Below the pieces are notes generated by a model. The model saw only the letters and a list, made by a program, of their open reading frames with translations. It did not search any database and was not told where the DNA came from. The translations under genes and the position numbers were made by a program. Below are positions 6,937 to 32,144 of a stretch of DNA of 61,211 nucleotides, one piece after another. Origin of the DNA: Solirubrobacteraceae bacterium (lineage in GTDB: Bacteria > Actinomycetota > Thermoleophilia > Solirubrobacterales > Solirubrobacteraceae). Numbering within the stretch: position 1 is the stretch's first letter; every line of letters begins with the position of its first letter. Location: positions 1-61,211 of the forward strand of contig DATNHQ010000023.1 in assembly GCA_035604915.1 (NCBI GenBank), given 5' to 3'.

Positions 6937-6938
6937 AG

Positions 6939-11579: not shown

Positions 11580-14008
11580 ACCTGCGGCGACCGCTGACGT
11601 TCGTCTACGGCAACTGCGTTCACGGCGCCTGCGGTGCCTGGGCGCTGTTCGTGCTGGAGCCCTACAGCTACGCGACGCTCACGGCCGAACGCAAGCGCGA
11701 GCGCTTCGGCCGCCTGCTCACAGCAATCGAGTCGCTGGAAGCAGACCTTCAGATCCTGCGCGTGGATCGACGTTGGGATCCAGCCAGCGAGCTCGAACAG
11801 CTCGGCGCAACGTATGCCGGTCCGCACCCTCACGCGCACCGTGCCTACGTAGGGTCTCAGCTCGAGGCCCTCGGCGAGGAGCGCGCCGAGTTGCCGACGG
11901 TCTTTCTCGGAGTCAGTCTCGAACCGCCGCAGCGCGACGTCTCAACATTCCTCTCGGAACTCGCAAGCCGGTCGGCGCGCGACTCTTGGCGAGCGTTCGG
12001 ACGCGCGATGCGCGTGGGCCCGGCGGGCGAGTTGTCCGCCGCCGAGCTGGAGCGGCTGCGCATGCGCTCCGACGAGGTCCACGCCCGTCTCGCATCGAGC
12101 GTGCCGGCGCGGCCGGCGCGGACCGTAGAGGTGCAGTGGCTCGTCAGGCGAGCGTTCTGCCGCGCGCTCGGGGAGCCGGAAGTCGACGGTCTCCACGAGC
12201 CCCGGGCGCTGGTCTTCGAGCGCAACGGCGCGGCTGTGCTCGCGCCGCTGGAGGCGGACGTGATGCGGTGGAGCGAAAGCTACGTCGAGCACCGCGGCCG
12301 CCTGCTCCGAGTCGAGTCTGAGCTGGGATCGAGCTGGCAGGCGCAGCTCGTAGCCGGGGCCCTTCCGGAGAGCGCGGCTTTCCCAAGCTCACGGCTCGAG
12401 CTGATGTTCGCTCCCGCAGAGGCGCTCCAGTTCGGAATCGATCTAACCCTCTGCGCCCGATACCTCCCAAACGACCTCGCCATGCGGCTTGTGCGCCGCC
12501 GCGTCCAGGATGCGGACGAGATCATGAGAGCCGAGGCCGGCGGGGACCAGGGCGTCTCTGACCGCGGCTACGACCGCACGCAGGAGGCACGCGACCTCCT
12601 TTCCTACCTGCAATCGGCCAGCCATCCGCCGCTGTTGCGAGCAGTGCTGGCCGTATCCGTCGCCGCCAGCACCGAGGATGAGCTCGAGCGGCGCGTCGAA
12701 GCGGTTCGCCGCGCGTTCGGCGAGGTGCGGTTGCACCGCCCTCTGGGCGACCAGTTGCGGTTGTTCATCGCAGGCCTGCCGGGTCAGCGCTGCGCGGTCG
12801 CCGGGTATGACGATGTTCTGACCTGCGAACAGGTCGCGGCGATGATGCCGCTTGCGACCCACGCGGTGGGCTCCCCGCGTGGGTTCCACCTCGGCCACAC
12901 GCTGACCGCGACGCGCCATCCCGTTCGCCTCAACCTGCGAGAGGGCTCGGACGAGGATCGCAACGCCGCGATCCTTTCGATCGGCTCGCTCGGGTCGGGC
13001 AAGACCACGCTCGACCAGAAGCTTGCCTACGAGGCGTTCCTGCTCGGAGCGCGCGTGATCGATTGCGACCCAAAGGGCGACCACCGGATGCACGAGTTGC
13101 CCGAGGTCGCACCGCACGTCGAGACGATCGCACTGCGAGGCGACCGCGCATTGCGTGGCATGCTCGATCCGCTGCGGATCGCACCGGAGCACCTCCGCCA
13201 GGACGCCACCGTCTCGTTCCTGTGCGATCTGCTGCCGGCACGCTCCGAAGCTGCCTGGGAGACCGCGGTAGCGGGGGCGGTTGATGCCGTGCGCCGGCGC
13301 TCCAGGGAGCCGACTTGCTTCGAGGTGATCCGCGCGCTGGCGGCGGGCGACGCGGTCGACCAGCAGGTGGCGAAGACGCTCGCTGTCTACGCCGGTGCTG
13401 GACTAACCCAACTCGGCTTCGCGGACCCCGACGTCCGCCTCCCGAAGGTGGGGACGAGGCAGGTCACCTATGTGCCGATACGCGACCTACCGGCCCCGGC
13501 CCCTGGGAGCACGCGTTCGGAGTACTCGCCGCTCGAGCGGATCGGGGAGCAGATCGTTCGGCTGATCGCGATGTTCGCGATGGCGCTGTTGTCCGCGGAA
13601 CGCTCGCGCCTAAAGGTCTTCTCGTTTGACGAGGGCTGGCGTCTGCTCGGCGACCCGGTCGGGCGGATGCTGCTGGCGTCGCTCCAGAGGATGGGTCGGA
13701 GCGAGCTCGCCGTTCCAATCATCTCGACCCAATTGGTCAGCGATGCATTGCTGGACGGCCGCGAGACGCTCGAGAACCTCATCGGCGCGACCTTCGTTTT
13801 CGGGTTACGCTCGGAACGCGAGGCGGAGAGGGCGCTCGCGCTGCTCGACCTCGACCCGAATGACCGCGCGCTGCGCGACCGACTGCTCGGTTTCGATGCC
13901 GGTCGCTGTCTCATGCGTGACCACCGCGGACGCGTTGAGGCCGTGCAGGTGGAGGTGCTCGTTCCCAGGCTGCTCGCGGCGTTCTCGACGACACCGCCGC
14001 CACGATGA
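11576..14008 (+). CDS. VirB4/TcpF/TraE-family T4SS ATPase
   Basis: GTG 11576 (GTGA overlap). Walker A is GSLGSGKTT and Walker B is KVFSFDEGW. The size, about 810 aa, is typical of VirB4. Confidence 0.85.
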   Translation: MNLRRPLTFVYGNCVHGACGAWALFVLEPYSYATLTAERKRERFGRLLTAIESLEADLQILRVDRRWDPASELEQLGATYAGPHPHAHRAYVGSQLEALGEERAELPTVFLGVSLEPPQRDVSTFLSELASRSARDSWRAFGRAMRVGPAGELSAAELERLRMRSDEVHARLASSVPARPARTVEVQWLVRRAFCRALGEPEVDGLHEPRALVFERNGAAVLAPLEADVMRWSESYVEHRGRLLRVESELGSSWQAQLVAGALPESAAFPSSRLELMFAPAEALQFGIDLTLCARYLPNDLAMRLVRRRVQDADEIMRAEAGGDQGVSDRGYDRTQEARDLLSYLQSASHPPLLRAVLAVSVAASTEDELERRVEAVRRAFGEVRLHRPLGDQLRLFIAGLPGQRCAVAGYDDVLTCEQVAAMMPLATHAVGSPRGFHLGHTLTATRHPVRLNLREGSDEDRNAAILSIGSLGSGKTTLDQKLAYEAFLLGARVIDCDPKGDHRMHELPEVAPHVETIALRGDRALRGMLDPLRIAPEHLRQDATVSFLCDLLPARSEAAWETAVAGAVDAVRRRSREPTCFEVIRALAAGDAVDQQVAKTLAVYAGAGLTQLGFADPDVRLPKVGTRQVTYVPIRDLPAPAPGSTRSEYSPLERIGEQIVRLIAMFAMALLSAERSRLKVFSFDEGWRLLGDPVGRMLLASLQRMGRSELAVPIISTQLVSDALLDGRETLENLIGATFVFGLRSEREAERALALLDLDPNDRALRDRLLGFDAGRCLMRDHRGRVEAVQVEVLVPRLLAAFSTTPPPR

Positions 14009-16458
14009 GCCGATCGCGCTACCGGTGGCTCTCGCTGGTTCTGGTTGCAGGCGCGCTGTGCTGCAGCACCGGGATTGCGGCTGCGGCGGACGGGGTCACA
14101 TCGGTGGCCGCGAGTCCGCTCGCCGCGAACGGTTTCGAGAGCCCGTCGTGCTCGTCGGCGCAACTCGAGGCCCAGCTCTCGCAATCAGAGCAAGCCAACT
14201 GCGCGATTTCCGGAGTGGCCGTGGCACCGGTGCCGCTGTCCAACTACGCCGTCGACATCGAAATCCCGGCGGGCCTCAGCGCGAGCTTCAGCGAGGACAT
14301 CGACTCGATCGTCCAGGACCTTTTCGTGACCCCCGTCTGGACGGCGCTGGTGTGGCTGATCCACGTGGCGCTGATCGCGCTGGAGTGGTGTTACTCGCTC
14401 GACCTCCTTGCGCCGGCGACGTTGTCACGCGCCGCCTCGGCTCTTGGCGGTGCCCGGCGGGTCTTCACGGATCCGTGGCTCGGCCTCGCGCTGGCTGTCG
14501 CGGCTGTCGGGTTCGCCTGGCAGGGGCTCGTTCGTCGCCGCGTGCTCGACACGCTGGGACAGGCGGCGCTGCTGGCGGTGATGATGCTCGCCGGACTTTG
14601 GATCATCGCCGACCCATCGGGGACGGTCGGCGCCGTCGGAGGTCTGGCCGATCGTGCCGCGCTCGCCACGGTCGCGGCGAGCGCGACCGGCGATCCCGGC
14701 AGTCCCGTCGCGACGGTTGACGGCGCGTTCGCGACCGTCTTCGACAGCGCCATCAGCGGACCGTGGTGCTACCTGGAGTTCGGAGACGTCGACTGGTGCC
14801 GGGATCCAGCCTCGCTCGATCCTCACCTGCGCGCGACCGCGACGCGGCTGGAGACGCTGTATCGCGCGGAGGCCTCGTGTCGTGGGCCGACGGTAGGCCT
14901 CGTGCAATGCGCGCCCGGTGGCAGTGCGCTGCAGAGCCAACTGGACGGGGCGGCGGCAGCGTTGGCTGCCGCGCGCAGCAATGGCCAGTTGTTTCTGGCG
15001 CTTCCTGCGCAGGCGCTATCGCGCACGTCACTGTCAGCACAGTCGGTGACGCCGACGCTCTACGGCACGCTTTGCGGCTCCAATGACCCGTCAGCCTGCA
15101 CGGCGCCCACGGCCCCGCAGGCCGAGTTTCGCTCCGCGTCGGGCACCTGGCCAAGGGTCGGCGGGCTGCTGCTGATCGTCGCGGGCACGCTCGGGATGTT
15201 GTTGTTGCTTGGGTTCTTGGCCCTCCGGTTGCTCGGTGCGGCACTCGCAACTCTGCTGTACCTCCTCCTGGCTCCCCTGGCGGTGCTCGCTCCCGCCCTC
15301 GGCGAAGGTGGACGCGACGCGTTCCGCCTGTGGATCACGCGGCTCGTGGGGGCGACGCTGGCAAAGCTGGTGTACTCGGTCGCTCTAGGCGTCGTCCTGC
15401 TTATGGTGGCGTTGCTCGGTTCGCTCGACAACCTCGGCTGGTGGACGCAGTGGCTCCTCACCTCGGTGTTCTGGTGGACGGCGTTCGAGCAGCGCCACCG
15501 CTTGCTCTCGCTGGTGCTGCATGAGCGCTCGGAGCCAACACGTCGCGCACCGTTCGCGACGCGCGCCTGGCTCGCCGCACGCAGCGCCGGTGCGGGAGTC
15601 GGCGCGGCGCGCGCCTCGGGTCGCATAGCCGTAATCGCCGGACAGCGGGCGGTCGAGACGGCGAAGCGTTGGCGTGAGCTCCCGCGGGACGGCGTCCCGT
15701 CTACGGCGCAACGGCGGAACGCTGCTTCGGCGGAGACGGGCACTACGCGGCGCGAACAGCGCGCCGGGGTGCAACGCGAGCTCGATGAGCAGGTCGCGCG
15801 CTTCCAGGACGTCGCGTTTGGCCCGGGGGCGTTCGCCGTCTCAAGTCCCGACGCGTCGAGCACGGCGAGGATCGCTGCACGCGCCGACGTCGTCGCGCTC
15901 GAGGCCCGACAGAAACGCATCGCAACGAGCCTTCGCGACGCCCGAGCAACCGGCGATCGACGACGAGCGGTATCGCTGCAGTTGCGGGGCAGGCGTGTCG
16001 CCGAGGAGCTCAAGGCGCGCCAAACAGGCGATGGCCAGCGAGTGCCATTCGCGACGAGCGGTCGGGTGCCCGCGCGCCTGGTTCGTCTGGCGCCGACGGC
16101 GCTTCGGCAGAGGGTTGCGCAGCGCACGCTGACGCGCCAGCTCGACCTGGCGGCGCGGGCAGCACCCGGGCAGTCGCGCTCGAGCGGCATCCGCGGCGTG
16201 TCACTGGCCGGCCTTGCGGGCCTTTCTGAGGCGGAATACCTCCGTCGACCGCCGGCCGCGCAGCGCGTGGCCCGCATTGAGATCGAGCGCGAGCTCGCAA
16301 GGCGCCGCGAGTTGTTGGACGAGGTCAGTTCGGGGCGGCGCGCGCCCCTGATCCCCGGCCTGTCGGGACGCCACCGCCAGCCGGAGAAACCCAAGAGTGA
16401 ACGCCACACGTCGCCCGAGGCACGACGGGCGCGTCAGTTCGGGCGCGACACGCGGTGA
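14005..16458 (+). CDS. Polytopic membrane protein, VirB6/TcpH/TrbL-like, with Arg-rich cytoplasmic C-terminal region
   Basis: ATGA overlap with virB4. There is a signal/TM at the N-terminus and at least 6 further TM helices (e.g. LLLIVAGTLGMLLLLGFLALRLLGAALATLLYLLLAPLAVLAP). The position after VirB4 fits this role. Confidence 0.6.
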   Translation: MSRSRYRWLSLVLVAGALCCSTGIAAAADGVTSVAASPLAANGFESPSCSSAQLEAQLSQSEQANCAISGVAVAPVPLSNYAVDIEIPAGLSASFSEDIDSIVQDLFVTPVWTALVWLIHVALIALEWCYSLDLLAPATLSRAASALGGARRVFTDPWLGLALAVAAVGFAWQGLVRRRVLDTLGQAALLAVMMLAGLWIIADPSGTVGAVGGLADRAALATVAASATGDPGSPVATVDGAFATVFDSAISGPWCYLEFGDVDWCRDPASLDPHLRATATRLETLYRAEASCRGPTVGLVQCAPGGSALQSQLDGAAAALAAARSNGQLFLALPAQALSRTSLSAQSVTPTLYGTLCGSNDPSACTAPTAPQAEFRSASGTWPRVGGLLLIVAGTLGMLLLLGFLALRLLGAALATLLYLLLAPLAVLAPALGEGGRDAFRLWITRLVGATLAKLVYSVALGVVLLMVALLGSLDNLGWWTQWLLTSVFWWTAFEQRHRLLSLVLHERSEPTRRAPFATRAWLAARSAGAGVGAARASGRIAVIAGQRAVETAKRWRELPRDGVPSTAQRRNAASAETGTTRREQRAGVQRELDEQVARFQDVAFGPGAFAVSSPDASSTARIAARADVVALEARQKRIATSLRDARATGDRRRAVSLQLRGRRVAEELKARQTGDGQRVPFATSGRVPARLVRLAPTALRQRVAQRTLTRQLDLAARAAPGQSRSSGIRGVSLAGLAGLSEAEYLRRPPAAQRVARIEIERELARRRELLDEVSSGRRAPLIPGLSGRHRQPEKPKSERHTSPEARRARQFGRDTR

Positions 16459-16462
16459 ACCA

Positions 16463-17527
16463 ATGAGCGCCCGCGCCGTCGGCGGCGGTGCTCTTGTGAT
16501 CGGCGCGATGCTAGCCGGCCTGGCGGTACTCGGGGCTTGCAGCCTTCTCATGCTGCTCAGCCTCGCGCGCGGTGGCGCGAGCATCGACTCTGGAGCCGGT
16601 AGCCTCGGGCCAGAGAACGCCTACTCGCCGTCGGCGTTCGCGCGAGCCGACATCCCGCCGCTCTATCTCGAGTTGTACATGGCGGCGGCGGCGCGCTTCG
16701 GGCTCGACTGGACGATCCTCGCCGGGATCGGACGTGTCGAGTGCGACCACGGCCGAGACCCGGCGCCTTCCTGCACCGTTGAGGGTCAGTTCAATTCCGC
16801 CGGAGCGGGCGGCCCTGCGCAGTTCCTGCTCTCGACGTGGCAGCGCTACGGCATCACCGCGAGCGGCGAGGGCACGCCTGACATGTGGCATCCGTCAGAC
16901 GCGGTCTTCAGCATGGCGAACTACCTACGGGCATCCGGCGCACCCGCCGACTATTCGCAGGCGATTTGGGCCTACAACCACGCCTGGTGGTATGTGGCCG
17001 ACGTCCTCGCATTTGCCCGCCGCTACCGCGCAGCGACCGTCCCATCGGGGCTGACAGATGGCGCTCCGCGCAGCGTCGTACGCCTGGTCGCCGCCACGCC
17101 CTGGCTGGCGCCGCTTCCCGGAACAGATCTCCGCTGCGACGCGCGCATCATCCCCGATGTCGAATACATTCTCGCTCACTTCGGGCTGATCGCGACATCC
17201 TGCTACCGAAATGATGGCGCCGCCGACCACGGCGAGCATCCGCTGGGTCTAGCGCTCGACGCGGTTCCTGTCGACGGTGACTGGTCACGTGCCCTCAGTG
17301 CCGCCGAAGCGTTTGGCTGGAAGCCCGGGTGCGGGAACACGGGATGCGCCGGCCAGTTGCCGCCACCGATGCGGTTCATTGGCTACAACGGCTACCCGGG
17401 CCACGGCGACCCGGCTAACGCCGGTGCCAACGCCCACATCCATTTCTCTTGGCTCCATGCGCCGGCGGTGCCCGATAGCCAGGCGGCGTGGGTGGATGTC
17501 TTCAGCCTCGATGCCGCGATGCCCTAG
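16463..17527 (+). CDS. Bifunctional cell-wall hydrolase: lytic transglycosylase (SLT) + LAS/M15-type zinc peptidase
   Basis: ATG 16463 followed by a TM anchor. SLT motifs are GIGRVECDHG, GPAQFLLSTWQRYG and AYNHAWWY. The C-terminal EHPLGLALD (H-x2-G-x-A-x-D) plus HIHFSW (H-x-H) match the D-Ala-D-Ala carboxypeptidase fold. Confidence 0.75.
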   Translation: MSARAVGGGALVIGAMLAGLAVLGACSLLMLLSLARGGASIDSGAGSLGPENAYSPSAFARADIPPLYLELYMAAAARFGLDWTILAGIGRVECDHGRDPAPSCTVEGQFNSAGAGGPAQFLLSTWQRYGITASGEGTPDMWHPSDAVFSMANYLRASGAPADYSQAIWAYNHAWWYVADVLAFARRYRAATVPSGLTDGAPRSVVRLVAATPWLAPLPGTDLRCDARIIPDVEYILAHFGLIATSCYRNDGAADHGEHPLGLALDAVPVDGDWSRALSAAEAFGWKPGCGNTGCAGQLPPPMRFIGYNGYPGHGDPANAGANAHIHFSWLHAPAVPDSQAAWVDVFSLDAAMP

Positions 17528-17661: not shown

Positions 17662-19218
17662 ATGCGCCGAACCACCGTCACAGCCTTACTTTGCGCCGCC
17701 GCGCTCCTCGGCGCGGGTGCGCTGGCCGCCACCGCCGCCTTCGCCTCCCACAACGAGGCGGTGTTCTTCGAGGCGCCGGGCAACCTCCTCGGCGTTTCGC
17801 CGGCGCAGCGCACCAAGGCCCTGGAGCAACTGCAGTCGCTCGGGGTGCACGCGCTGCGGATCGTGCTGTATTGGCGCAACGTCGCGCCCAAGCCGAACCA
17901 CCGCCACCGGCCAAACTTCAACCAGGAGAACCCGGCGCGCTACCGCTGGGGCTCCTACGACCAGCTGATCGCCGCCGTGAGCGAGCTGCACTGGCAGATC
18001 CTGCTGACAGTCAGCGGACCGGTGCCGGACTGGGCGACCCCGCATGGCGAGGACCGGTTCACGAGCCCGAGCACCGGCGACTTCCACCAGTTCATGGTCG
18101 CGGTCGGACGCCACTACGGACGCGTCGTGAAGCTCTATTCGATCTGGAACGAGCCCAACCAGCCGGGCTTCCTGCGACCGCAGTACAGCGGCAAGCAGCT
18201 GGTCTCACCGCAGGTCTACCGCGGCCTCTTCCTCGCCGGGTACTCGGGGCTGAAGGCCTCGGGCAACTTCGCCGGGATGAAGGTGCTGATGGGGGAGACC
18301 TCGCCGATCGGCGTCGTCTCCCAGCACGTTCCCGCGCCGCTCGCGTTCCTGCGCGGCGTGCTCTGCCTCGACGCCAACTACAAACCGGTGGGCCACTGCG
18401 CGAAGCTGCCGGCCGACGGCTACGCGCAGCACCCCTACGACAACGCGAAGGGGCCGTTCGGCGACCCGCCCAAGGACGACGTCACGATCAACACGATCGG
18501 GCGCCTGGTCACGGCGCTCGACCGTGCGGCGTCGGCCGGCGCCATCCGCCATGGGCTGCCGGTCTATGTCACGGAGTTCGGCGTGCAGACCAAGCCGAAC
18601 CCCTACGTCGGTGTGACGCTCGCCCAGCAGGCCGAGTTCGGCGCGATCGCCGAGCACATCGCCTGGAGCAACCCCCGCATCGCCTCGTTCTCCCAGTATC
18701 TCCTCCGCGACGATCACCCGGTCAACGGACACGTCGTCGGCTCGCAGTCGGGGCTCGAGAACTACCGGGGCAGGCAGAAGCCGGGTTACAACGGCTTTCG
18801 CCTGCCGCTGACGGTGACGCGCACGCACAGCGGCGTCGCGCTGTGGGGACTCGTGCGCCCAGAGACCCTGCCGGGCGCAAAGGGCCCGACGGGCCCGACG
18901 GGCGCGACAGGGCCGACGGGGCGCACGGGCGCCTCCGGCGTCACCGGTGCCACCGGCACCACCGGCACGACCGGAGCGACGGGCACAACCGCGCCGATCC
19001 CGTCCCCATCGACAGTGCTCGTGCAGTACTCGACAAACGGCGGCAGGTCGTGGCACGACCTGCAGCGGGTGCACATCGGCGCGGGCGGGGTCTGGACGGC
19101 GAGTGGCCGCTATGCGACCTTCCGCTTTTGGCGGGTGGAGTGGACCTCGCCGTCCGGTCAGACGTTCGTCGGCGCGGCGATCCGCGCGTACTCGAGCTCC
19201 GGGAAGCTCGACTTCTGA
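17662..19218 (+). CDS. Secreted TIM-barrel glycoside-hydrolase-like protein with collagen-like repeat and C-terminal beta domain
   Basis: Signal peptide MRRTTVTALLCAAALLGAGALAATAAFA. GH clan-A style catalytic motifs are IWNEPN and VYVTEFG. Thirteen GXY triplets are followed by a domain of about 75 aa. Confidence 0.7.
   Translation: MRRTTVTALLCAAALLGAGALAATAAFASHNEAVFFEAPGNLLGVSPAQRTKALEQLQSLGVHALRIVLYWRNVAPKPNHRHRPNFNQENPARYRWGSYDQLIAAVSELHWQILLTVSGPVPDWATPHGEDRFTSPSTGDFHQFMVAVGRHYGRVVKLYSIWNEPNQPGFLRPQYSGKQLVSPQVYRGLFLAGYSGLKASGNFAGMKVLMGETSPIGVVSQHVPAPLAFLRGVLCLDANYKPVGHCAKLPADGYAQHPYDNAKGPFGDPPKDDVTINTIGRLVTALDRAASAGAIRHGLPVYVTEFGVQTKPNPYVGVTLAQQAEFGAIAEHIAWSNPRIASFSQYLLRDDHPVNGHVVGSQSGLENYRGRQKPGYNGFRLPLTVTRTHSGVALWGLVRPETLPGAKGPTGPTGATGPTGRTGASGVTGATGTTGTTGATGTTAPIPSPSTVLVQYSTNGGRSWHDLQRVHIGAGGVWTASGRYATFRFWRVEWTSPSGQTFVGAAIRAYSSSGKLDF
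18874..18990 (+). repeat. Collagen-like (Gly-X-Y)x13 coding repeat
   Basis: GAK GPT GPT GAT GPT GRT GAS GVT GAT GTT GTT GAT GTT, read directly in frame of the 17662 ORF. Confidence 0.9.
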
Positions 19219-19225
19219 GCGACGC

Positions 19226-19780
19226 TCAGCGGTTCTGGCCCGGCACCCACAACGGCTCCTCGCCGTGGTTGGCGTCGCGAGCGAGGATGAACAGCAGGTC
19301 GCTCAAGCGGTTGAGGTAGCGCAGCGTCTGGGGGCTCGCGGCCGGGCCGAGCGCGACGACGCGGCGCTCCGCGCGCCGGCAGACCGTGCGGCAGACGTGC
19401 AGCCACGCCGCCGCCGGCGTGCCGCCCGACAGCACGAACGAGCGCAGCGGCTCGAGCCCGGCGTTGACCTCGTCGCAGCGCTGCTCGAGCCACTCGACCT
19501 GCTCGGGCAACAGCCGCAGACGGTCGCGCGGGTCATCCTCGGGCACGGCCAGGTCGGCGCCGAGATCGAAGAGGTCGTTCTGGATCCGCCGCAGCCACTG
19601 CGCGGTTTGCGCCGGCATGTCGGCGAGCGTGAGCGCGAAGCCGATCTGCGCTCCGAGCTCATCCACCTGGCCGTATGCCTCGATCCGCGGGTCCGCCTTG
19701 GAAACGCGGCTGCGGTCGCCGAGATGAGTCTCGCCGCCGTCGCCGAGCTTGGTGTAGATGCGTGTGAGGTTGACGGTCAT
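19226..19780 (-). CDS. pduO: PduO-type ATP:cob(I)alamin adenosyltransferase
   Basis: The sequence IYTKLGDGGETHL...RIEAYGQVDELGAQIG...IQNDLFDLGADL and the 184 aa size are typical of MMAB/PduO-type enzymes. Confidence 0.9.
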   Translation of the reverse strand: MTVNLTRIYTKLGDGGETHLGDRSRVSKADPRIEAYGQVDELGAQIGFALTLADMPAQTAQWLRRIQNDLFDLGADLAVPEDDPRDRLRLLPEQVEWLEQRCDEVNAGLEPLRSFVLSGGTPAAAWLHVCRTVCRRAERRVVALGPAASPQTLRYLNRLSDLLFILARDANHGEEPLWVPGQNR

Positions 19781-19814
19781 GAGTGCTTGTCGCAGTGTCG
19801 CAGAGCGCTACGAT

Positions 19815-19990
19815 GCCCCCGTCATTGGTCGGTGGCATGGGAAGCCGGTGCAACGCCGGCGCGGACCCGCCACTGTGACCGGGGACGTCCGCCGCACGCG
19901 CGCAAGCGCAGGCCACTGGCTCGCCACAGCTAGCCGGGAAGGCGCGGCAGGATCGGCCCGGAAGCCAGGAGACCTGCGCCGACCGCAAGC
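19815..19990 (+). promoter_or_regulatory. Cobalamin (B12) riboswitch
   Basis: The core is GGTGGCATGGGAAGCCGGTGCAACGCCGGCGCGGACCCGCCACTGT. It is followed by GCCACTGG...CCGGGAAGGC and the B12 box GAAGCCAGGAGACCTGC. Candidate P1 is GGTCGG (19826) pairing with CCGACC (19978). It sits directly upstream of the transporter operon. Confidence 0.9.
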
Positions 19991-20025
19991 CCACATAGAC
20001 CCTCGTGGAAAGGGGTTGGCGAATC

Positions 20026-20778
20026 ATGCAACGAATCCTCGGCGTGCGCCCGGCGCTCGCTCTCCTCGCTACCGCTGCGCCGGCGCTCGCGCTCGCGATG
20101 ACGGCTGCGAACACCAGCGCCGCCGCGACCTCGGCGACCGCGATCACCGTGCGCGTCGAAGGCACGACCAAGACTCTCGTGCCAACGACGGCCGTCACAC
20201 TCGGCTCGCGCGCCGTCGTCAAGGACGGCAAAGCGACCGACAGCTGCAGCGGCCAGAGCGCCGCCGCGGCGCTCGAGCTCGCAAGCCGCGGGAACTGGAA
20301 GGGAACCTGGTCGGCGTCCTATCACGCCTACTTTCTGACCTCGATCGAGGGCCTCGGCTTCCCCTCGACCGGGGCGGAGTACTGGGCGTTCTGGGTCAAC
20401 GACAAGCCCTCGGCATCGGGGATCTGCGGCTACGACCCCAAGCCAGGCGACAGCCTGCTGTTCTTTCCCGACTGCTTCGGCAAGAAGTGCCCGAAGAGTG
20501 ACGGCGTGCTCGGCGTGAAGGCGGCCGCTTTCGCGACCGTCGGTCACCCCTACACGGTCTCCGTGACCGCTTACAGCGACGCCAAGGGGACGCCGTCGAG
20601 GGCGGCTGGAGCGACCGTCAGCGGCGGTGGTGCAACCGCCAAGACGGCCGCCAGCGGCACGGCGACGCTGGCCTTCGCCCACGCGGGCCACTTCACCCTC
20701 GATGTGACCAAGCCAAGCGCCGTGCGGACCGAGGCGTCCGTCTGCGTGCAGGCCGCCGCCGCGACGACGTGCGGATGA
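20026..20778 (+). CDS. Secreted DUF4430 domain protein
   Basis: RBS gaaagggg precedes ATG 20026. The signal peptide is MQRILGVRPALALLATAAPALALA. The DUF4430 core is AEYWAFWVNDKPSASGICGYDPKPGDSLLFF. Confidence 0.75.
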   Translation: MQRILGVRPALALLATAAPALALAMTAANTSAAATSATAITVRVEGTTKTLVPTTAVTLGSRAVVKDGKATDSCSGQSAAAALELASRGNWKGTWSASYHAYFLTSIEGLGFPSTGAEYWAFWVNDKPSASGICGYDPKPGDSLLFFPDCFGKKCPKSDGVLGVKAAAFATVGHPYTVSVTAYSDAKGTPSRAAGATVSGGGATAKTAASGTATLAFAHAGHFTLDVTKPSAVRTEASVCVQAAAATTCG

Positions 20779-21699
20779 GTGTCACGAACTGACGCGATCT
20801 GTGCGAGCGTCGCCGTCGTGGCGACGCTCGCGCTCGCGGGCTGCGGCCTCGGCGCCGGCAGCAGGCCCGTGCGCGTCTCGCTGCTCGTAACACAGGGCTT
20901 CGGCGCGCAGACCGTGCTCGCCAGGCAGGCGCCCAAGGTCGTCGGCGCCGACACGGTGATGCGCATGCTCGAGCGTAACGCCAGCGTGACGACGCGCTAC
21001 GGGGGCGGCTTCGTCGAGAGCATCCAGAAGCTCTCGGGCGGCGGCGCCAGCGACTGGTTCTACTACGTCAACGGCGTGCAGGCCGGGAAGGGCGCCGCCG
21101 ACACCAAGCTTCACAGTGGCGACCACGTCTGGTGGGACCGTCACGACTGGGCCGCGACGCAGACGATCCCGGCCGTCGTGGGCTCCTTCCCCGAGCCGTT
21201 CCTCGACGGTTACGGCGGCAAGCGCCTGCCGCTGCTGATCGAGTGCACACAGACCGCCTCGCCCTCGTGCCGGGCCGTCGAGGACGAGTTCACGAGCCTC
21301 AAGCTCGTCGCCTCGCTCAGCTGCCTGCTCTGCTCGCAGTACAACGAATCGCTGCCCGTGCTCGTCGGCCCCTACGCAACGCTGACGCCAGCCCCGGCCG
21401 CTGTGAAGCTGGCGGGGCCGGTCTCCTCGAGCGGCGTCTACGCCCGCTTCGAAGACGCCGGGCGCAAGCTCGTGCTGCTCGATCAGCGCGGGCGCGTCGT
21501 TCGCAGCGCCGGCGCCGGCGCCGGCCTGGTCGCGGCGACGCGCTACGCCGGGCAGCCGCCGACCTGGTTCGTCACCGGCACCGACGCCGCCGGCGTGGCT
21601 GCGGCGGTGCAGGCCTTCAATGCGCAGACGCTCGACGGCCACTTCGCTGTCGCCGTGATCGACGACGCCGCGATCCCCCTGCCCGACAGCGGGCCATGA
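20779..21699 (+). CDS. Lipoprotein with DUF4430 domain
   Basis: GTG immediately follows the previous stop. The lipobox is LALAGC. The DUF4430 core is DWFYYVNGVQAGKGAADTKLHSGDHVWWD. Confidence 0.7.
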   Translation: MSRTDAICASVAVVATLALAGCGLGAGSRPVRVSLLVTQGFGAQTVLARQAPKVVGADTVMRMLERNASVTTRYGGGFVESIQKLSGGGASDWFYYVNGVQAGKGAADTKLHSGDHVWWDRHDWAATQTIPAVVGSFPEPFLDGYGGKRLPLLIECTQTASPSCRAVEDEFTSLKLVASLSCLLCSQYNESLPVLVGPYATLTPAPAAVKLAGPVSSSGVYARFEDAGRKLVLLDQRGRVVRSAGAGAGLVAATRYAGQPPTWFVTGTDAAGVAAAVQAFNAQTLDGHFAVAVIDDAAIPLPDSGP

Positions 21700-22544
21700 C
21701 CTACCTGCGCCGCGCGAGCCCGCTGCACGCGGCGCGCGCCAGCGTCGCCGCGGCGTACTGCGCTGCGCTTGTGACAGCCGCGTTCCTGAGCTCGCACCCG
21801 CTCGTGCTCGCCGTGCTCGCGCTGGCCGTACTCGGCGCGGGCCTGGCCTGCGGCGTCGGCTCCCGCGTCGCCCGCTCGCTGTGGCTGTCGCTCCCGATGG
21901 GGCTCGCGATCGTGCTCGTCAACGCGCTCGTCACGCGCGAGGGGCTGACCGTGCTCGTGCGCCTGGGCGACGGCGGCCCGCTCGGGCAGCTCGACGTCAC
22001 GCTCGAGGCGCTCGCCTTCGGCGCCAAGGAGGCGCTACTGCTGGTCGTGGTCGTCGCGGTCGCCGCGCTCGCGAGCGCGGTCATCGATCCCGACGAGGTG
22101 CTGCGCTCGCTGAGGCGCGTCTCCTTTCGCTCGGCGCTGACGGCGACGATCGCGACGCGGATGCTGCCGCTGCTCGCGCTCGACGCTCGCCGCATCGGCG
22201 AGGCGCAGCGCTGCCGTCCGCAGCCGCCCGGCCGCCTTGCGGTGATGCGGGCAATCACCGCCAACGCCCTCGACCGCTCGCTCGACGTCGCCGCCACGCT
22301 CGAGGTGCGCGGCTACGGCTCGGCGCGACGGCCACCGCGCACGCGCCGGGCCGCCTCGCGCCACGACCTCGCCGTCGCCGCCTCCGCCGTCGCGCTGGTC
22401 GCGCTCGCGGCGGCTTGGCCCGCGCCGTTCTCCTACTACCCGACGATCGCCGGCTCCTTCGATGCCTCGGCCTTCGCGCACGCCGCCGCGCTCGCGCTGG
22501 TGGCGCTGGCTCCGTTCACGCAGCGACGCGGGATCTCACGGTGA
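21696..22544 (+). CDS. ECF transporter transmembrane (T) component, EcfT/CbiQ family
   Basis: ATGA overlap with the upstream gene. The protein is polytopic with the conserved Arg-rich coupling region (ATRMLPLLALDARRIGEAQRCR). Confidence 0.7.
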   Translation: MTYLRRASPLHAARASVAAAYCAALVTAAFLSSHPLVLAVLALAVLGAGLACGVGSRVARSLWLSLPMGLAIVLVNALVTREGLTVLVRLGDGGPLGQLDVTLEALAFGAKEALLLVVVVAVAALASAVIDPDEVLRSLRRVSFRSALTATIATRMLPLLALDARRIGEAQRCRPQPPGRLAVMRAITANALDRSLDVAATLEVRGYGSARRPPRTRRAASRHDLAVAASAVALVALAAAWPAPFSYYPTIAGSFDASAFAHAAALALVALAPFTQRRGISR

Positions 22545-24175
22545 ACGCGCTAGAGCTACACGCGGTCACCTACTCCTACCCGGCAGCGTCCGAGCCGGCG
22601 CTGCGCGACCTCACGCTCGAGATCGCCGAGGGGGAGTTCGTGGTGCTCGCCGGCGGCTCGGCTGCCGGCAAGTCGACGCTGCTCGGCGTCGCCAGCGGGC
22701 TCGTCCCGCATTTTCACGGCGGCCGCTTCGACGGCCGCGCGGAGGTGTGCGGCATGGACCTGCGTAGCCACGGGCCGGCGGCGCTGGCGGGCGAGGTCGG
22801 CACGCTGTTCCAGGATCCGGAGACGCAGGTCGTGATGGGCACGGTTCGCGCGGAGCTCGCCTTCCCGCTCGAGAACCGTGGCTACGAGGCGGTGGCGGTC
22901 GCGCGCGGGGTCGAGGAGGTCGCGCTCGCGCTCGGCATCGAGAGCCTGCTCGAGCGCACGACCGTCGATCTCTCGGGCGGCGAGCTTCAGCGCGTCGCGC
23001 TGGGGGCGGCGCTCGCCGGGCGCCCGCGCCTGCTCGTGCTCGACGAGCCGACCTCGCAGCTTGACCCGGTCGCGGGCGATGAGCTGTTGGCGCTGCTGCG
23101 ACGGCTGAACGAGGAGTGGGGGACGACGATCATGCTGGCCGAGCACCGCCTCGAGCGCTGCCTCGCCGCGGCCGATCGCGTGATTGCGCTCGAGCGGGGC
23201 GCCGTCGCCTGCGACGCGGCCCCGAGCGGCTTCCTCGAGTGGGCCCATCGGCGCGAGCCAGGGCTCGAAACGCCGGGCGCGGCCCTGATCGCCGGGCTCG
23301 GCCTGGGCCCGCCGCCGGCCGGCGTCAAGCAGGCCCGCGCGACGCTGCGAGCGGCCGGGCTGCTGCCCGACGTCGCGGCCGCGCCCGAACCGCCCGGCGA
23401 CCACAGCCGGTCGCCTGGCGGCTGGCGACGGCACCGGGCGGAGGGGGCGCCGGCTCTGCAGCCGACGCTTCGCCTGCGGCGCGTCTGGCATGAGCTGGCG
23501 GGCGGGCGGGCGATCCTGGCCGACGTCTCGCTGTCGGTTCGCCCGGGCGAGCGCGTCGTGCTGCTGGGTCGAAACGGCGCCGGCAAGTCGACGCTCCTGC
23601 GCCACGTCGGCGGGCTGATCGAGCCGACGCGCGGGCGGGTCGAGCGCTCGGGGCGCGTCGCGCTCCTGCTTCAGAACCCCGGGGACTACTTCGTCCATGA
23701 CCGCGTCGGCGATGAGCTCGACGCGGAGGCGCTGCGCGAGGCGGGCCTCGAAGCGCTCGCCGACCGCCATCCGCGCGACTGCTCGGGCGGTGAGCGCCAG
23801 CGCCTCGCGCTCGCGATAGTGACCGCGGGAGACCCGCCTGCGGCCGTGCTGTGCCTCGACGAGCCGACGCGCGGAATGGACCGCCTCGCCAAGCGTGCGC
23901 TCGCCGATCGGCTCGTCGAGCGCTCGGGGCTCGGCGGCGCCGTCGTCGTGGCGACGCACGACCCCGAGTTCGCGGCGTCGTTCGCGACGCGCGCTGTGCT
24001 GCTCGCCGACGGCCGTATCGTCGCCGACGCGAGCCCCGCCGAGCTGCTCTCCGGGGGCTGGTATTTCGCGACCGAGACGGCCCGCATCCTCGGCGGTCAC
24101 GCCGGCATCCTCACCGCGGTCGAGGCCATCGCCCGGCTCGGCGCCGGCGCGGGTGCGCTGGAGTCGCGCGCATGA
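22541..24175 (+). CDS. Fused tandem ABC ATPase (EcfA-EcfA'-like)
   Basis: GTGA overlap. There are two full NBDs: Walker A GGSAAGKST and GRNGAGKST, signature LSGGELQR and CSGGERQR, Walker B LLVLDEP and VLCLDEP. Confidence 0.9.
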   Translation: MNALELHAVTYSYPAASEPALRDLTLEIAEGEFVVLAGGSAAGKSTLLGVASGLVPHFHGGRFDGRAEVCGMDLRSHGPAALAGEVGTLFQDPETQVVMGTVRAELAFPLENRGYEAVAVARGVEEVALALGIESLLERTTVDLSGGELQRVALGAALAGRPRLLVLDEPTSQLDPVAGDELLALLRRLNEEWGTTIMLAEHRLERCLAAADRVIALERGAVACDAAPSGFLEWAHRREPGLETPGAALIAGLGLGPPPAGVKQARATLRAAGLLPDVAAAPEPPGDHSRSPGGWRRHRAEGAPALQPTLRLRRVWHELAGGRAILADVSLSVRPGERVVLLGRNGAGKSTLLRHVGGLIEPTRGRVERSGRVALLLQNPGDYFVHDRVGDELDAEALREAGLEALADRHPRDCSGGERQRLALAIVTAGDPPAAVLCLDEPTRGMDRLAKRALADRLVERSGLGGAVVVATHDPEFAASFATRAVLLADGRIVADASPAELLSGGWYFATETARILGGHAGILTAVEAIARLGAGAGALESRA

Positions 24176-25674
24176 GCTGGCCGCTCGCGTCCTTCGGCCT
24201 CCTCGCGCTCGCCCTGGCCGGCGGCTTCGCGTGGTACGAGCGCTCCAAGCCTTCTTCGCGGACGGTTGCCGTCGTCGCTTCGCTGGCGGCGCTTGCGACA
24301 CTCGGGCGGATCGCCTTCGCGCCGCTGCCCAACGTCAAGCCGACGACCGACATCGTCCTGATCGCCGGCTACGCGCTCGGGGGGGCTCCGGGCTTCGCCG
24401 TCGGCGCTGTCGCCGCGGTCGCCTCCAACATCGTCTTCGGTCAGGGCCCGTGGACGCCGTGGCAGATGCTCGCCTGGGGGCTGGTTGGGCTGCTCGGCGC
24501 GGCGATCGCGCGCCGCCGCCGCCGCCGCCCGCTGCCTCGGCTCGCGATGGCGCTGATCTGCGCGGCTGCGGGCTTCGGCTACGGGCTGGTCCTGAACTTC
24601 TCGACCTGGGTCACCTTCAGCGGCCAGCACACGCTGGCCCAGTTCCTCGTGATCGAGGGGGAGGCCTTCCCGTTCGATCTCGCTCACGCGGTCGGCAACC
24701 TCATCTTCTTCCTCGCCTTCGGCCCGGCGCTGATCCGCGTGCTCGGCCGCTTCAAAGCGCGGATGGACGTCAGCTGGGGGCTCGCGGGAGCAGCTTCGCT
24801 GGCGCTGCTGGCCTGCGTCGGCGCCGCCGCGCTCGGCGGCGGCGGGCGGATCGCGAGCGCGCAGGCGGCGGCGCCGGCGCTCGCGGCGCCGGTCGGCTAC
24901 CTCGAACGCGCTCAGAACCCAGACGGCGGCTTCGGGCTCAGCCCCGGCCAGCCCTCCTCGCAGCTCGCGAGCGCGTGGGTCGTGATCGGGCTCGCGGCGG
25001 CGGGCCGTGCACCGGGGTCGGTGCGCCGCGACGGGCATGACGCGGTCACCTGGATCCGCGCGCACCTCGGCCAGATCAGCGATGCCGGCGACGTCGAACG
25101 GACGCTGCTGGCGCTCGCCGCCGCGCACGCGCCGCTCGGCTCGCTGCCGGCGCGCCTCCGTGGCGACCAGCGCAGCGACGGCTCGGTCTTCGAGCAGGTC
25201 AACCTCACCGCGTTCGCGATCCTGGCGTGGCGCGCCGGCGCGGACTCGGGCGGCCTCGCGCGCGCCGCGGCGTGGCTGCGTCGCCAGCAGAACGCCGACG
25301 GCGGCTTCAGCTTCGCCGTGCTCGGCGACCCGAGCGACATCGACGACACGGCCGCCGCGCTCGAGGCGCTCGCAGCGACCTCCGCGCCCGCCCGTCCGCT
25401 GGCGCGGGCGCGAAGCTACCTCGAACGCCAGGAGAACCGCGACGGCGGCTTTCCCCTGCAGCCGGGCGACTCCTCGAACTCGCAGTCGACCGCCTGGGCC
25501 GTGCAGGCGCTCGTCGCGGCCGGGGCTCCGGTCCCACGCGCGCTCGGCTACCTGCGCGCCCGCACCGCCCGCTCCGGTGCCGTGCGCTACGCCGCGGGAC
25601 TGGACCAGACGCCCGTTTGGGTCACCGCCGAAGCGCTTGCCGCGCTCGCGCTGCGGCCCCTTCCGATCCGCTGA
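24172..25674 (+). CDS. ECF S-component-like membrane domain fused to extracytoplasmic prenyltransferase/squalene-cyclase-type repeats
   Basis: ATGA overlap. The N-terminal ~210 aa contain about 6 TM helices. An extra TM follows, then four repeats of the Q-x-x-DGGF type (QNPDGGFG, QRSDGSVF, QNADGGFS, ENRDGGFP). Confidence 0.65.
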   Translation: MSWPLASFGLLALALAGGFAWYERSKPSSRTVAVVASLAALATLGRIAFAPLPNVKPTTDIVLIAGYALGGAPGFAVGAVAAVASNIVFGQGPWTPWQMLAWGLVGLLGAAIARRRRRRPLPRLAMALICAAAGFGYGLVLNFSTWVTFSGQHTLAQFLVIEGEAFPFDLAHAVGNLIFFLAFGPALIRVLGRFKARMDVSWGLAGAASLALLACVGAAALGGGGRIASAQAAAPALAAPVGYLERAQNPDGGFGLSPGQPSSQLASAWVVIGLAAAGRAPGSVRRDGHDAVTWIRAHLGQISDAGDVERTLLALAAAHAPLGSLPARLRGDQRSDGSVFEQVNLTAFAILAWRAGADSGGLARAAAWLRRQQNADGGFSFAVLGDPSDIDDTAAALEALAATSAPARPLARARSYLERQENRDGGFPLQPGDSSNSQSTAWAVQALVAAGAPVPRALGYLRARTARSGAVRYAAGLDQTPVWVTAEALAALALRPLPIR

Positions 25675-30291: not shown

Positions 30292-32144
30292 GCGTCGGCC
30301 GCGGCGCGCGGCTCTGCCTGACCGCCTGCGCGCTGGCGCTGCTCGCCGCGCAGAGCGCGCGCGCCGCGCTCGGACCGCCTGCGACGATCGACGGGCCGAG
30401 CCCCGACATCGTCGCGCTCGACGCCGTCGCGCTGGCACCCGATGGCGGCGGCGCGCTCGTCTACCGCAAGCTCGCGGGAGGCGCTCCGCACGTGTTCGTC
30501 TCACTCGAGAGCTCCGGCGTCTGGGCGGCGCCCCTCCAGGTCGACAACGGCGTTGCCCCCGGCGCCTCGGCCGCCGCGGTGGCGGTGGCCAGCGGCGGTC
30601 GCGTGGCGGTGGTCTGGGTTGCGGGCGGCATGCTCTACGGCGCCGTCCGCGACGTCGGTGCGAGCGCCTTCACGGCGCCACAGGCGATCGCCGCCGCCAG
30701 CGGCGTCCCGGCCCTCGGCATGGGCATCAGCGGCACCGCCTACGTCGCCTTCAGCGCAGCCGACGGCGCCGGCTCGGACATCGATGTCGCGCGGCTGGAC
30801 CGGACCGCGACGAGCTTCGCACCGCTGGCAGGGCCGCTCAACGCCGCACCGGTTGTCCTCGCGGGCGCAGGCGCCGGACCGAGCATCGTTGTCGCCGCGG
30901 ACGCCACCGCCGTTGTCGCGTGGGCGCAGCGTCAGCCGGACGGCAGCACTCACGTGTTCGTGCGCCGCGCCTCGGGGGCGGGGCCGAGCCCGGTGCTCGA
31001 CGATGCGACGGTGGCCAGCCTCGATGGCCTCCCCGGGGGGTCCGCCGACAGCCCCGCGCTGGGCGTCGAGTACGACGCGAGCGTCGCCTGGCTCGCCTTC
31101 CGCGAGACGCTCGGCGGCTTCTCGCGGCTGCTCGTGGCCGAGCTGCTCGGCGATGAGCTGCGCACGCCCGCGCTCGCCGACTCGCTTGGGAGCGCGGCCG
31201 GGCCCGGCTCGGCGCTGGCGCCGAGCCTCGCCGTCAACGGCAACGGCGGCGGGTTGCTCGCCGGTGAGATCGCGCCGGGCAACCAGGTCGTCGTCGCCGA
31301 GCTCGGCGCCGCCGCCAACCCCTTCGCCTGGAGCGCCGGCACGATCGGCTCAGCGGCCGTCGAGCCGGTCCCGCCGCAGCCGCTCGCCGCGCTGTCGGCG
31401 AGCGGCCGGGGCGCCGTCGTCGAGGTGCCGGCGGCGGGCGCGCTCGCGGCGTCGCTGTTCCAAGACGGCGCCGCCAGCGGCGCGCCGCTCGCCCTCTCGA
31501 CCGCCGCGCTCGGGCCGGTCGTCGCAGCGGACGGGCTCAGCGCGGGCGCCGACGACCGCGGCGATCTCGTGGTCGGCTTCGTCGCCGGCGCCCCCGGAGC
31601 GCTGTCGGTCGCCGCCCAGCCGATCGTCGTCGCCCCGGGGGTGCCGCGCGCGACCGGCACGCAGCTTTGGATCGCGCAGCGCCGACCAGCGCTGCACTGG
31701 CAGGCCGCCGCCGACTCGTGGGGGAAGCCGATGTACTCGGTCTACGTCGACGGTGCCCGTGTCGCGACGACCGCCGCGACCTCCTTCACGCCGCCGTCGG
31801 ACCTGCCGGACGGCCGCCACACCTGGCGGGTGGTCGCGACCGACGCGCTCGCCCAGAGCGCCGCCTCGCAAACGCGCCGGCTGCTGATCGACGCCGCGCC
31901 GCCGTCGATCCGTCTGCTCGTGGTGGGGCTGCGCACGGCCGGCACACCGATCGCCTTTCACATCGAGGCCGCCGCGATTTCGGGGGTCCGCCGCGTCTCA
32001 CTCGATTACGGTGACGGCAGTGGGAGCGCCGCCGCCGACTCCACCCACGCCTTCGCGAAGCCCGGCCGCTACACGGTCTCAGTCACCGTCGTCGACCGCG
32101 CCGGCGTGGACGCGGCCCTGCAGGAGCGCGTGACGATCTCGTGA
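30288..32144 (+). CDS. Secreted Ala/Gly-rich protein with C-terminal Ig-like and PKD domains
   Basis: GTG 30288 overlaps the glpD stop. The signal peptide is LCLTACALALLAAQSARA. The C-terminus VSLDYGDGSGSAAADSTHAFAKPGRYTVSVTVVD fits the PKD consensus. Confidence 0.6.
   Translation: MSVGRGARLCLTACALALLAAQSARAALGPPATIDGPSPDIVALDAVALAPDGGGALVYRKLAGGAPHVFVSLESSGVWAAPLQVDNGVAPGASAAAVAVASGGRVAVVWVAGGMLYGAVRDVGASAFTAPQAIAAASGVPALGMGISGTAYVAFSAADGAGSDIDVARLDRTATSFAPLAGPLNAAPVVLAGAGAGPSIVVAADATAVVAWAQRQPDGSTHVFVRRASGAGPSPVLDDATVASLDGLPGGSADSPALGVEYDASVAWLAFRETLGGFSRLLVAELLGDELRTPALADSLGSAAGPGSALAPSLAVNGNGGGLLAGEIAPGNQVVVAELGAAANPFAWSAGTIGSAAVEPVPPQPLAALSASGRGAVVEVPAAGALAASLFQDGAASGAPLALSTAALGPVVAADGLSAGADDRGDLVVGFVAGAPGALSVAAQPIVVAPGVPRATGTQLWIAQRRPALHWQAAADSWGKPMYSVYVDGARVATTAATSFTPPSDLPDGRHTWRVVATDALAQSAASQTRRLLIDAAPPSIRLLVVGLRTAGTPIAFHIEAAAISGVRRVSLDYGDGSGSAAADSTHAFAKPGRYTVSVTVVDRAGVDAALQERVTIS

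Follow-up and report, generated by a model that had tools for sequence, protein, structure and literature searches.

A riboswitch-headed ECF operon of Solirubrobacterales joins a CbrT-like S-component to an α/α toroid and two transcobalamin-type DUF4430 proteins: a predicted corrinoid importer with a candidate extracytoplasmic capture module

To our knowledge, energy-coupling factor (ECF) transporters work by definition without a soluble substrate-binding protein, and the sole ECF importer of vitamin B12 characterised that we know of has no accessory binders. Experimentally, ECF-CbrT has been shown to import cobalamin (Cbl) and cobinamide (Cbi), and its gene lies beside pduO (PMC5997447). The animal B12 carrier transcobalamin (TC) attains high affinity only with both of its domains, and its separately expressed α and β domains co-elute only with cyanocobalamin (CNCbl), as do those of intrinsic factor (IF) (PMC5599065). 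Bacterial counterparts are described in passages of the 2007 paper by Burroughs, Balaji, Iyer and Aravind, which defined the SLBB superfamily: transcobalamin-type SLBB domains are fused, on either side, to α/α toroids; some operons contain a second SLBB paralogue, and there is linkage to CbiO/CbiQ genes; B12 scavenging, a bacterial origin of animal transcobalamin and surface complexes of several extracellular SLBB proteins are proposed (PMC1796856). Passages of a 2019 preprint by Verplaetse et al. concern the Lactobacillus sakei ECF operon lsa1836-1840, in which a separate α-like Lsa1840 and β-like Lsa1839 were modelled as forming a heterodimer, with haem uptake as the assigned role (bioRxiv 10.1101/864751). 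Here we describe an operon in a stretch of 61,211 nucleotides (the window) of DNA from a Solirubrobacteraceae bacterium (GCA_035604915.1, contig DATNHQ010000023.1). It encodes two SLBB proteins of the DUF4430 family, an ECF module, and an S-component covalently fused to a toroid. This operon very probably specifies an ECF importer of corrinoids that is regulated by B12 and has accessory B12-binding proteins outside the cytoplasm.

The window has a G+C content of 71% and comes from a peat metagenome, and its nearest relatives are metagenome-assembled genomes (MAGs) of Solirubrobacteraceae. Five open reading frames, ORF1 to ORF5, follow a cobalamin riboswitch. The stop/start junctions from ORF1 to ORF5 read TGA/GTG, ATGA, GTGA and ATGA, so that all five genes touch or overlap their neighbours; these contacts support a single, co-transcribed unit. 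The features of the locus, with ORF5 broken down into its parts, are as follows.

19226-19780, minus strand: divergent gene outside the operon for a PduO-type ATP:cob(I)alamin adenosyltransferase (TIGR00636, 183 bits, cutoff 108)
19778-19996, plus strand: cobalamin riboswitch aptamer at the head of the operon (Rfam RF00174, matched over the full model 1-189 with 70.9 bits, E 1.7e-15)
20026-20778, plus strand: ORF1, 250 residues, predicted secreted DUF4430/SLBB protein with a C-terminal immunoglobulin (Ig)-like, CarboxypepD_reg-like part (Pfam DUF4430)
20779-21699, plus strand: ORF2, 306 residues, DUF4430/SLBB lipoprotein (lipobox and Pfam DUF4430)
20866-21153, plus strand: N-terminal DUF4430/SLBB domain of ORF2, about residues 30-125
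21211-21696, plus strand: conserved C-terminal α/β domain of ORF2, about residues 145-306 (motifs PAVVGSFPEPF, ECTQ and PPxWFVTGTDAAGV)
21696-22544, plus strand: ORF3, EcfT, the CbiQ-type transmembrane coupling component (Pfam CbiQ, 42 bits)
22541-24175, plus strand: ORF4, fused EcfA-EcfA' double ATPase (two ABC_tran stretches, 144.9 bits)
24172-25674, plus strand: ORF5, 500 residues, S-component, seventh transmembrane (TM) helix and toroid (Pfam and PDB searches, AlphaFold2 (AF2) model)
24172-24762, plus strand: CbrT-like ECF S-component with six TM helices, ORF5 residues 1-197 (6FNP match and Pfam)
24784-24831, plus strand: extra seventh TM helix, ORF5 residues 205-220 (AF2 helix; hydropathy peak at 198-228)
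24883-25647, plus strand: toroid, ORF5 residues 238-492, 12 helices in six QxxDGGF-type repeats (AF2, pLDDT >95)
25336-25353, plus strand: DxDDTA motif of the toroid, D389-I-D391-D392-T393-A394, on the loop that joins its helices 7 and 8

The preliminary description of this operon had claimed that the ectodomain of ORF5 is covalently fused to an S-component-like membrane domain, and had named mis-assembly of genes that are separate in relatives as one possible objection. The fusion is genuine. For comparison we used the best 80 of 590 genome-scan matches at species level, which come from Solirubrobacterales and related actinobacterial MAGs. S-component and toroid lay in one ORF at 77 of these 80 loci; the exceptions were L021 and L059, where toroid and S-component lie next to each other but in different frames, and L044, which has another arrangement that is described below. 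The best 120 database relatives of ORF5 were likewise full-length fusions (54-100% identity), and 56 of the best 150 ectodomain cluster representatives (50% identity clusters) were preceded by an S-component according to our own hidden Markov models. Furthermore, the junction was crossed by contigs from independent peat runs, at 24336-25311 (X1) and 24409-25102 (X5). An artefact of assembly or gene calling, to which the split frames of L021 and L059 might have pointed, can be dismissed on these counts as practically ruled out. Databases give ORF5-type proteins generic names only, and no description of a covalent S-component-toroid fusion was found in the literature searched or in the passages of PMC1796856 and bioRxiv 10.1101/864751 that concern SLBB and toroid proteins. 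In one relative, P0280 (816 residues), the fusion of S-component and toroid becomes a triple one through a PAP2-superfamily phosphatase domain (47 bits) at the C-terminus.

The joint occurrence of DUF4430, toroid and ECF genes under a B12 riboswitch, which had been put forward as a check, was confirmed within the one order. Among the 74 loci with enough upstream sequence, an ORF1-like gene was present in 71, and ORF2-like, EcfT and EcfA genes in 73 each, always in constant order; 70 of the 74 had a PduO gene within the locus. A cobalamin riboswitch preceded the first gene in 18 of the 19 loci that were scanned for it. Co-inheritance of all parts under the riboswitch is therefore strict. The single locus of the 19 without a riboswitch at the Rfam gathering score was L028 (1222-1368), whose spacer between PduO and ORF1 is ~146 nt long. 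We also observed the same operon, with a toroid 49% identical to that of the window, in L051 (contig CAJCHW010000106.1), which is labelled 'Chlamydiae bacterium' and was probably mis-binned or mislabelled.

By sequence, the membrane part of ORF5 is a CbrT homologue and a B12-type S-component, with its substrate predicted accordingly. Residues 32-197 aligned with residues 12-175 of the 182 residues of 6fnp_A at E 5e-14 (phmmer with a single sequence against the PDB), and a profile search gave E 9.8e-17. This was the sole significant PDB match of the S-component, the next having an E of at least 0.09, and no PDB S-component other than CbrT was matched at E<=10. The alignment stops at RFK, the C-terminus of CbrT, directly before the extra helix, and the motifs PNV(K/Q)PxTDI, SNIxxGxGxWT and FDLxHAxGNL are common to both proteins. 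ECF S-component models cover about residues 28-183 (PF07155 ECF-ribofla_trS, 28.1 bits with a cutoff of 26.7; DUF6580, 29.2 bits with a cutoff of 27), and PF12822 ECF_trnsprt scored 30.6 bits, marginally under its cutoff of 30.7. Together with the sequence homology, the B12-related context of riboswitch and adjoining PduO gene places ORF5 in the CbrT family, as a predicted carrier of cobalamin/cobinamide.

For the remainder of the transporter, ORF3, which overlaps ORF2 by its ATGA junction, scored 30 bits with TIGR02454, below the cutoff of that model, and ORF4 scored 256 bits with ECF_ATPase_1 and 249 bits with ECF_ATPase_2, both under the equivalog cutoffs. EcfT and two ATPase domains in the same operon as the S-component make up the dedicated module of a group I ECF transporter. 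Group I transporters are described as lacking an extracytoplasmic substrate-binding protein, and in this point the locus departs from the group, with two predicted exported SLBB proteins and an exported toroid that would bind substrate.

Two DUF4430 proteins, one secreted and one lipoprotein, had been noted at the head of the operon, and both assignments stand. The N-terminus of ORF1, MQRILGVRPALALLATAAPALALA, is hydrophobic with an ALA motif and resembles a signal peptide, so that the protein looks like a secreted one; its residues 99-146 matched Pfam DUF4430 with 30.6 bits (cutoff 23.8). ORF2 has the lipobox LAGC, with Cys22 conserved in at least 90%, and a stronger DUF4430 match of 51.5 bits against the same cutoff of 23.8.

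DUF4430 is the transcobalamin β-domain family, in line with the kinship stated in the preliminary description. The Pfam model matched human TC at residues 334-406 with 25 bits, above its cutoff (the human sequence used agrees with PDB 7QBF at each of 409 residues). The AF2 model of ORF2 (pLDDT 74.7) gave the same answer on the level of fold: its 19 best PDB matches in Foldseek were all β domains of TC, haptocorrin (HC) or IF, or a bacterial DUF4430 structure, and it aligned with the isolated TC β domain 5NO0 at TMt 0.70 and a root-mean-square deviation of 2.8 Å. A sequence profile of ORF2 found no matches among PDB sequences, so that the likeness to TC β is visible only by fold search. The conserved C-terminal domain of ORF2 had no Pfam or NCBIfam match, and Foldseek returned weak similarities to BcsB and flavodoxin-like folds.

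The ectodomain of ORF5 had been described as an α/α barrel of QxxDGGF repeats, and the confidently modelled 12 helices, together with toroids as Foldseek matches, bear this out. In the AF2 model of ORF5, seven TM helices are followed by a flexible stretch of ~15 residues (222-237), within which residues 222-234 are disordered (pLDDT <50). Seven TM helices, with the basic stretch RFKAR joining TM6 to TM7, would put the toroid outside the membrane, a topology that rests on the model; on the same side one would expect the lipoprotein ORF2 and the exported ORF1.

In sequence as well as in fold, the toroid is closest to class II terpene cyclases. The Pfam models SQHop_cyclase, Prenyltrans and TED_complement matched about residues 340-455 of ORF5, and a toroid profile searched against the PDB found squalene-hopene cyclase (SHC) at 5e-42 and SsDMS, a drimenyl diphosphate synthase, at 4e-40. 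The best Foldseek matches were the monodomain class II cyclases 8PAK/8PAJ (TMt 0.6), followed by SsDMS, MstE, SHC and the β subunits of farnesyltransferase (FTase) and geranylgeranyltransferase (GGTase). Protein prenyltransferase β subunits bind zinc through Asp, Cys and His. No cysteine occurs in residues 235-500, which leaves no such zinc site, and the locus has no α-subunit gene. The nearest curated family is NF053823 (SCO2321 family membrane protein), to which ORF5 does not belong at 78.5 bits against a cutoff of 300; standalone toroid relatives scored 72-116 bits with the same model.

The preliminary description went further and proposed the SLBB proteins and the toroid as possible halves of a TC-like binding site. 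For the β half this agrees with the kinship of DUF4430. For the α half, a specific likeness did not emerge. The toroid had no match to PF01122, the TC α domain, at E<=0.01; chains of TC, IF or HC were absent from its PDB profile searches, at E<=10 in one and E<=1e-3 in another, and also from the 50 Foldseek matches listed for it. The model has 12 helices and matches α/α toroids. Alignment with human and rat TC by hhalign gave a probability of ~1% or less and P values of 0.05-0.6 depending on mode (0.05-0.12 in local mode, non-significant). The likeness between the toroid and TC α is limited to a shared fold class, as predicted by the AF2 model, without specific homology. When the locus is held against the TC family as a whole, the SLBB/DUF4430 fold is present (ORF2), the PF01122 domain is absent, and the two domains do not share one chain.

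Within the toroid, the most conserved motif is the DxDDT sequence. ORF5 S-D389-I-D391-D392-T393-A aligned with P-D374-V-D376-D377-T-A of SHC and with S-D-V-D-D-T of SsDMS, and in 62 diverse relatives D389 was kept in 46, D391 in 59, D392 in 38 and T393 in 59. More generally, the conserved polar residues of the toroid cluster at the start of the second, presumably inner, helix of each repeat. The toroid thus carries the DxDD(T) general-acid motif that marks class II cyclases. It does not have their didomain build or isoprenoid setting, being a single exported toroid of ~265 residues with no terpenoid genes nearby. In TC, the α7/α8 loop bears a cobalt-binding histidine (PMC11107200). The TC sequence at this place reads H172-H173-S-V-D176-T177-A-A. 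In an extended hhalign alignment (P 0.046), His173, which we take to be the cobalt-binding residue, was paired with D389, D176 with D392 and T177 with T393, and the register was kept through helices 9-12. This is no more than suggestive of a position of DxDDT on the TC α7/α8 loop and the start of α8, a region that lies over the upper face of Cbl.

The strongest evidence that toroid and SLBB protein work together came from the locus L044, a Solirubrobacteraceae MAG in which the parts are joined differently. Directly after the riboswitch, L044 encodes a protein of 530 residues (6189-7781) that combines a signal peptide, a DUF4430 domain (35 bits), a CarboxypepD_reg-like Ig domain and the toroid in one chain. 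Its S-component (11517-12368) has six TM helices and stops at the point where CbrT does, with neither TM7 nor toroid, and an ORF2-like lipoprotein, EcfT, EcfA and PduO are also present. The SLBB-Ig-toroid architecture is found in ~21 protein clusters from a minority clade of Solirubrobacteraceae (L044 = P0407; P0258, P0391-P0410), among whose loci L044 was the one inspected, and the toroids of these proteins are ~50% identical to that of the window. Because the fusion partner of the toroid is in some proteins the S-component and in others an ORF1-type SLBB protein, Rosetta-stone logic provides strong genomic evidence that these three parts would cooperate physically. Since it is an ORF1-type protein that is fused to the toroid in the sister clade, ORF1 is the likelier β-half partner of the toroid than ORF2.

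Related operons differ further in their number of exported proteins. In many, the ORF1-like gene is separated from the ORF2-like gene by one or two additional genes, with up to three SLBB paralogues per operon; extra genes with weak DUF4430 and CarboxypepD_reg/Ig-like matches lie at 719-1903 and 1869-2708 in L016 and at 924-2093 and 2083-2748 in L003. L044 encodes another exported protein of 330 residues (7709-8701), which matches no Pfam family and has a TM anchor at its C-terminus.

Outside the operon, the genes downstream of ORF5 are pntAA/AB/B and glpD, which are unrelated to the transporter, and a terminator scan 3' of ORF5 returned nothing convincing. The window sequence was absent from the listed peat metatranscriptome runs. 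Upstream, plus-strand genes encode a protein with an SLT_2 lytic transglycosylase domain (16397-17527) and a predicted secreted protein of 518 residues (17662-19218), in which a collagen-like Gly-X-Y run (Pfam Collagen, 27.4 bits) lies between two otherwise unassigned regions. A large protein with Big_13 and PKD domains at its end is encoded further downstream (30297-32144, plus strand); like the transglycosylase, it is a cell-envelope neighbour. In two of the related loci, a c-di-AMP (ydaO/yuaA) riboswitch was found ~4 kb downstream of the transporter operon (L019, 11410-11552; L066, 11498-11666).

Taken together, these results lead us to lean, with slightly better than even confidence, towards a dedicated group I ECF corrinoid importer that is repressed by B12 through its riboswitch and is equipped with a capture module. 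An SLBB protein, more likely ORF1, would bind a corrinoid in the cell-wall zone. The loaded SLBB domain would then close, in a ligand-dependent manner, on a conserved polar face of the toroid, for which we propose E309/R310, N344, D389/D391/D392/T393 and N436/Q438/S439. With the toroid tethered to the S-component, the sandwich would form at the mouth of the transporter, and the corrinoid would be handed to the CbrT-like pocket and imported at the expense of ATP hydrolysis by EcfT/EcfAA', after which PduO would adenosylate it. The separated domains of TC assemble around cobalamin, and a supply of the two halves in trans is thus feasible. Whether SLBB protein and toroid in fact enclose the corrinoid in a transcobalamin-like sandwich is a question on which we see the chances as evenly balanced. 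A bolder version, which we hold only tentatively and judge somewhat less probable, is an ECF lineage that uses a two-piece, ligand-assembled binder, made of an SLBB protein and a toroid joined to the S-component, so that the ligand would be caught and handed over at the transporter mouth. In this version the cyclase-derived toroid would cover the corrin ring with its DxDDT loop and form an evolutionary bridge from terpene cyclases to the α domain of animal TC.

Several observations weigh against the capture model. ECF-CbrT of Lactobacillus delbrueckii works without such accessory proteins (PMC5997447), and a capture module is therefore not mechanistically required. The toroid is not detectably related to TC α by sequence, the link consisting of the shared fold and the alignment at P=0.046. 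Its best-conserved residue, D391, occupies the general-acid position of class II cyclases and could point to catalysis rather than binding. Because the isolated β domain of TC binds Cbl and Cbi on its own (PMC5599065), the SLBB proteins might not need the toroid at all. The conserved C-terminal domain of ORF2 is not accounted for by the model, and the comparative counts hold for one order, Solirubrobacterales.

The most serious of the other explanations is that the SLBB proteins are self-sufficient binders, acting as a reservoir or relay in the manner of BtuG/BtuH/BtuJ, while the toroid is a dock, a spacer or an anchor of the S-component without contact to the ligand. The autonomous binding by the TC β domain and the missing likeness of the toroid to TC α both fit this explanation; up to three SLBB paralogues per operon would suit a relay, surface complexes of several SLBB proteins are among the proposals in the passages of Burroughs et al. 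(PMC1796856), and the alternate fusions of the toroid are explained by docking equally well. Against it, conserved polar residues at the starts of the second helices are typical of a ligand site rather than of a passive scaffold, and TC attains high affinity only with both domains (PMC5599065). We consider it unlikely on balance, with an appreciable share of the probability nonetheless. If instead the toroid were an extracytoplasmic enzyme that uses its class II cyclase-type DxDD acid to process the substrate ahead of import, for instance through release or remodelling of a corrinoid, or to act on an isoprenoid or another envelope compound, this would explain the exact alignment of DxDDT with the catalytic motifs of SHC and SsDMS, the retention of D391 in nearly all relatives (59/62), the monodomain class II cyclases 8PAK/8PAJ and MstE as best fold matches, and the added PAP2 phosphatase domain of P0280. 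Yet terpenoid pathway genes are absent from the operon and its flanks, and the context is all B12, in riboswitch, CbrT-like S-component, PduO and SLBB proteins alike. An acid-catalysed cyclisation outside the membrane would have no obvious substrate, the neighbouring D392 is kept in just 38 of the 62 relatives, and TC, which is not an enzyme, retains a V-D-T remnant at the aligned place. Catalysis by the toroid is in our judgement quite improbable.

The identity of the ligand is the other point on which readings diverge, in that another tetrapyrrole such as haem could be imported and the B12 elements could be regulatory context only. ECF-dependent haem uptake exists in Staphylococcus lugdunensis (PMC7299338), and in the passages of bioRxiv 10.1101/864751 it was haem uptake to which the L. 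sakei ECF operon with TC-like α and β proteins was assigned. Here, however, the cobalamin riboswitch (18/19 loci) and PduO (70/74) accompany the transporter, CbrT is the sole S-component in the PDB to which that of ORF5 has a match, and SLBB/DUF4430 domains bind corrinoids in every solved liganded case. Import of haem by this system appears very improbable.

We return to the favoured reading, a corrinoid importer with a capture module, and to its place among earlier proposals. Among the elements of the preliminary interpretation, the identity of DUF4430 with TC β, the toroid fold and the co-inheritance are upheld, and the alternative fusion now adds to them; a specific kinship of the toroid with TC α and the claim of novelty are not. 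To call such a capture mechanism uncharacterised was an overstatement, in that passages of PMC1796856 predicted it in 2007 and passages of bioRxiv 10.1101/864751 modelled a split pair in 2019. Beyond these two predictive papers, the literature searched contained no experimental corrinoid binding by bacterial DUF4430/toroid proteins. The concept is one already predicted, and the S-component-toroid fusion is a new version of the predicted system. No new category is opened: the outline had been predicted before, and the bacterium is an uncultured actinobacterium from peat. Nevertheless, how bacteria without an outer membrane, Gram-positives included, compete for corrinoids is poorly understood. 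If the Cbl-dependent sandwich is true, no earlier ECF transporter would have had a genuine capture device outside the cytoplasm, and the system would also be a natural split transcobalamin, a simple system for ligand-induced assembly and hand-over. The fusions of the toroid to the S-component and to SLBB make the capture hypothesis directly testable, and the operon is relevant to the 2007 proposal that the B12 carriers of animals have a bacterial origin.

Compared with known systems, the locus is nearest to ECF-CbrT of L. delbrueckii (PDB 6FNP, PMC5997447) in its transporter, with which it shares a homologous S-component, EcfT with two ATPase domains, and the linkage to pduO. CbrT, however, is a bare six-TM protein that works with a shared ECF module of group II and without accessory proteins, whereas the system in the window has a dedicated ECF module in its operon, fused ATPases, an extra TM helix, an extracytoplasmic toroid of 265 residues and two SLBB proteins. 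With mammalian TC, IF and HC it has in common the β-grasp SLBB (DUF4430) domain, and its toroid is by the model predicted to be of the α6/α6 kind that forms their other building block. The mammalian carriers are single soluble chains with an N-terminal α domain of PF01122; in the operon the halves belong to different polypeptides associated with the membrane, the order in single-chain relatives is the reverse (SLBB-Ig-toroid), and the toroid has the cyclase DxDDT where TC has H-S-V-D-T. Class II cyclases (SHC 1GSZ, SsDMS 7XQ4, 8PAK/8PAJ, MstE 6SBC) share the repeat architecture with DxDDT in the homologous repeat, but the toroid of ORF5 is a single domain of ~265 residues, exported, tethered to a transporter and without isoprenoid genes, and any catalysis by it is putative.

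A similar logic is found in the Bacteroides proteins BtuG/BtuH/BtuJ with BtuB, and in BtuF with BtuCD, where high-affinity external or periplasmic binders pass the corrinoid to a transporter. The Btu systems differ in having unrelated folds (β-propeller and others; a class III substrate-binding protein) and TonB-dependent or type II ABC transporters. Also comparable are the predicted or modelled systems described in the passages of the 2007 paper and of the L. sakei preprint, which combine extracytoplasmic TC-type SLBB proteins, often as paralogous pairs, with α/α toroids and ECF-type genes. In these the toroid is fused to SLBB or separate, and the L. sakei system is claimed to import haem, whereas in the operon described here the toroid is part of the S-component of a predicted B12 transporter.

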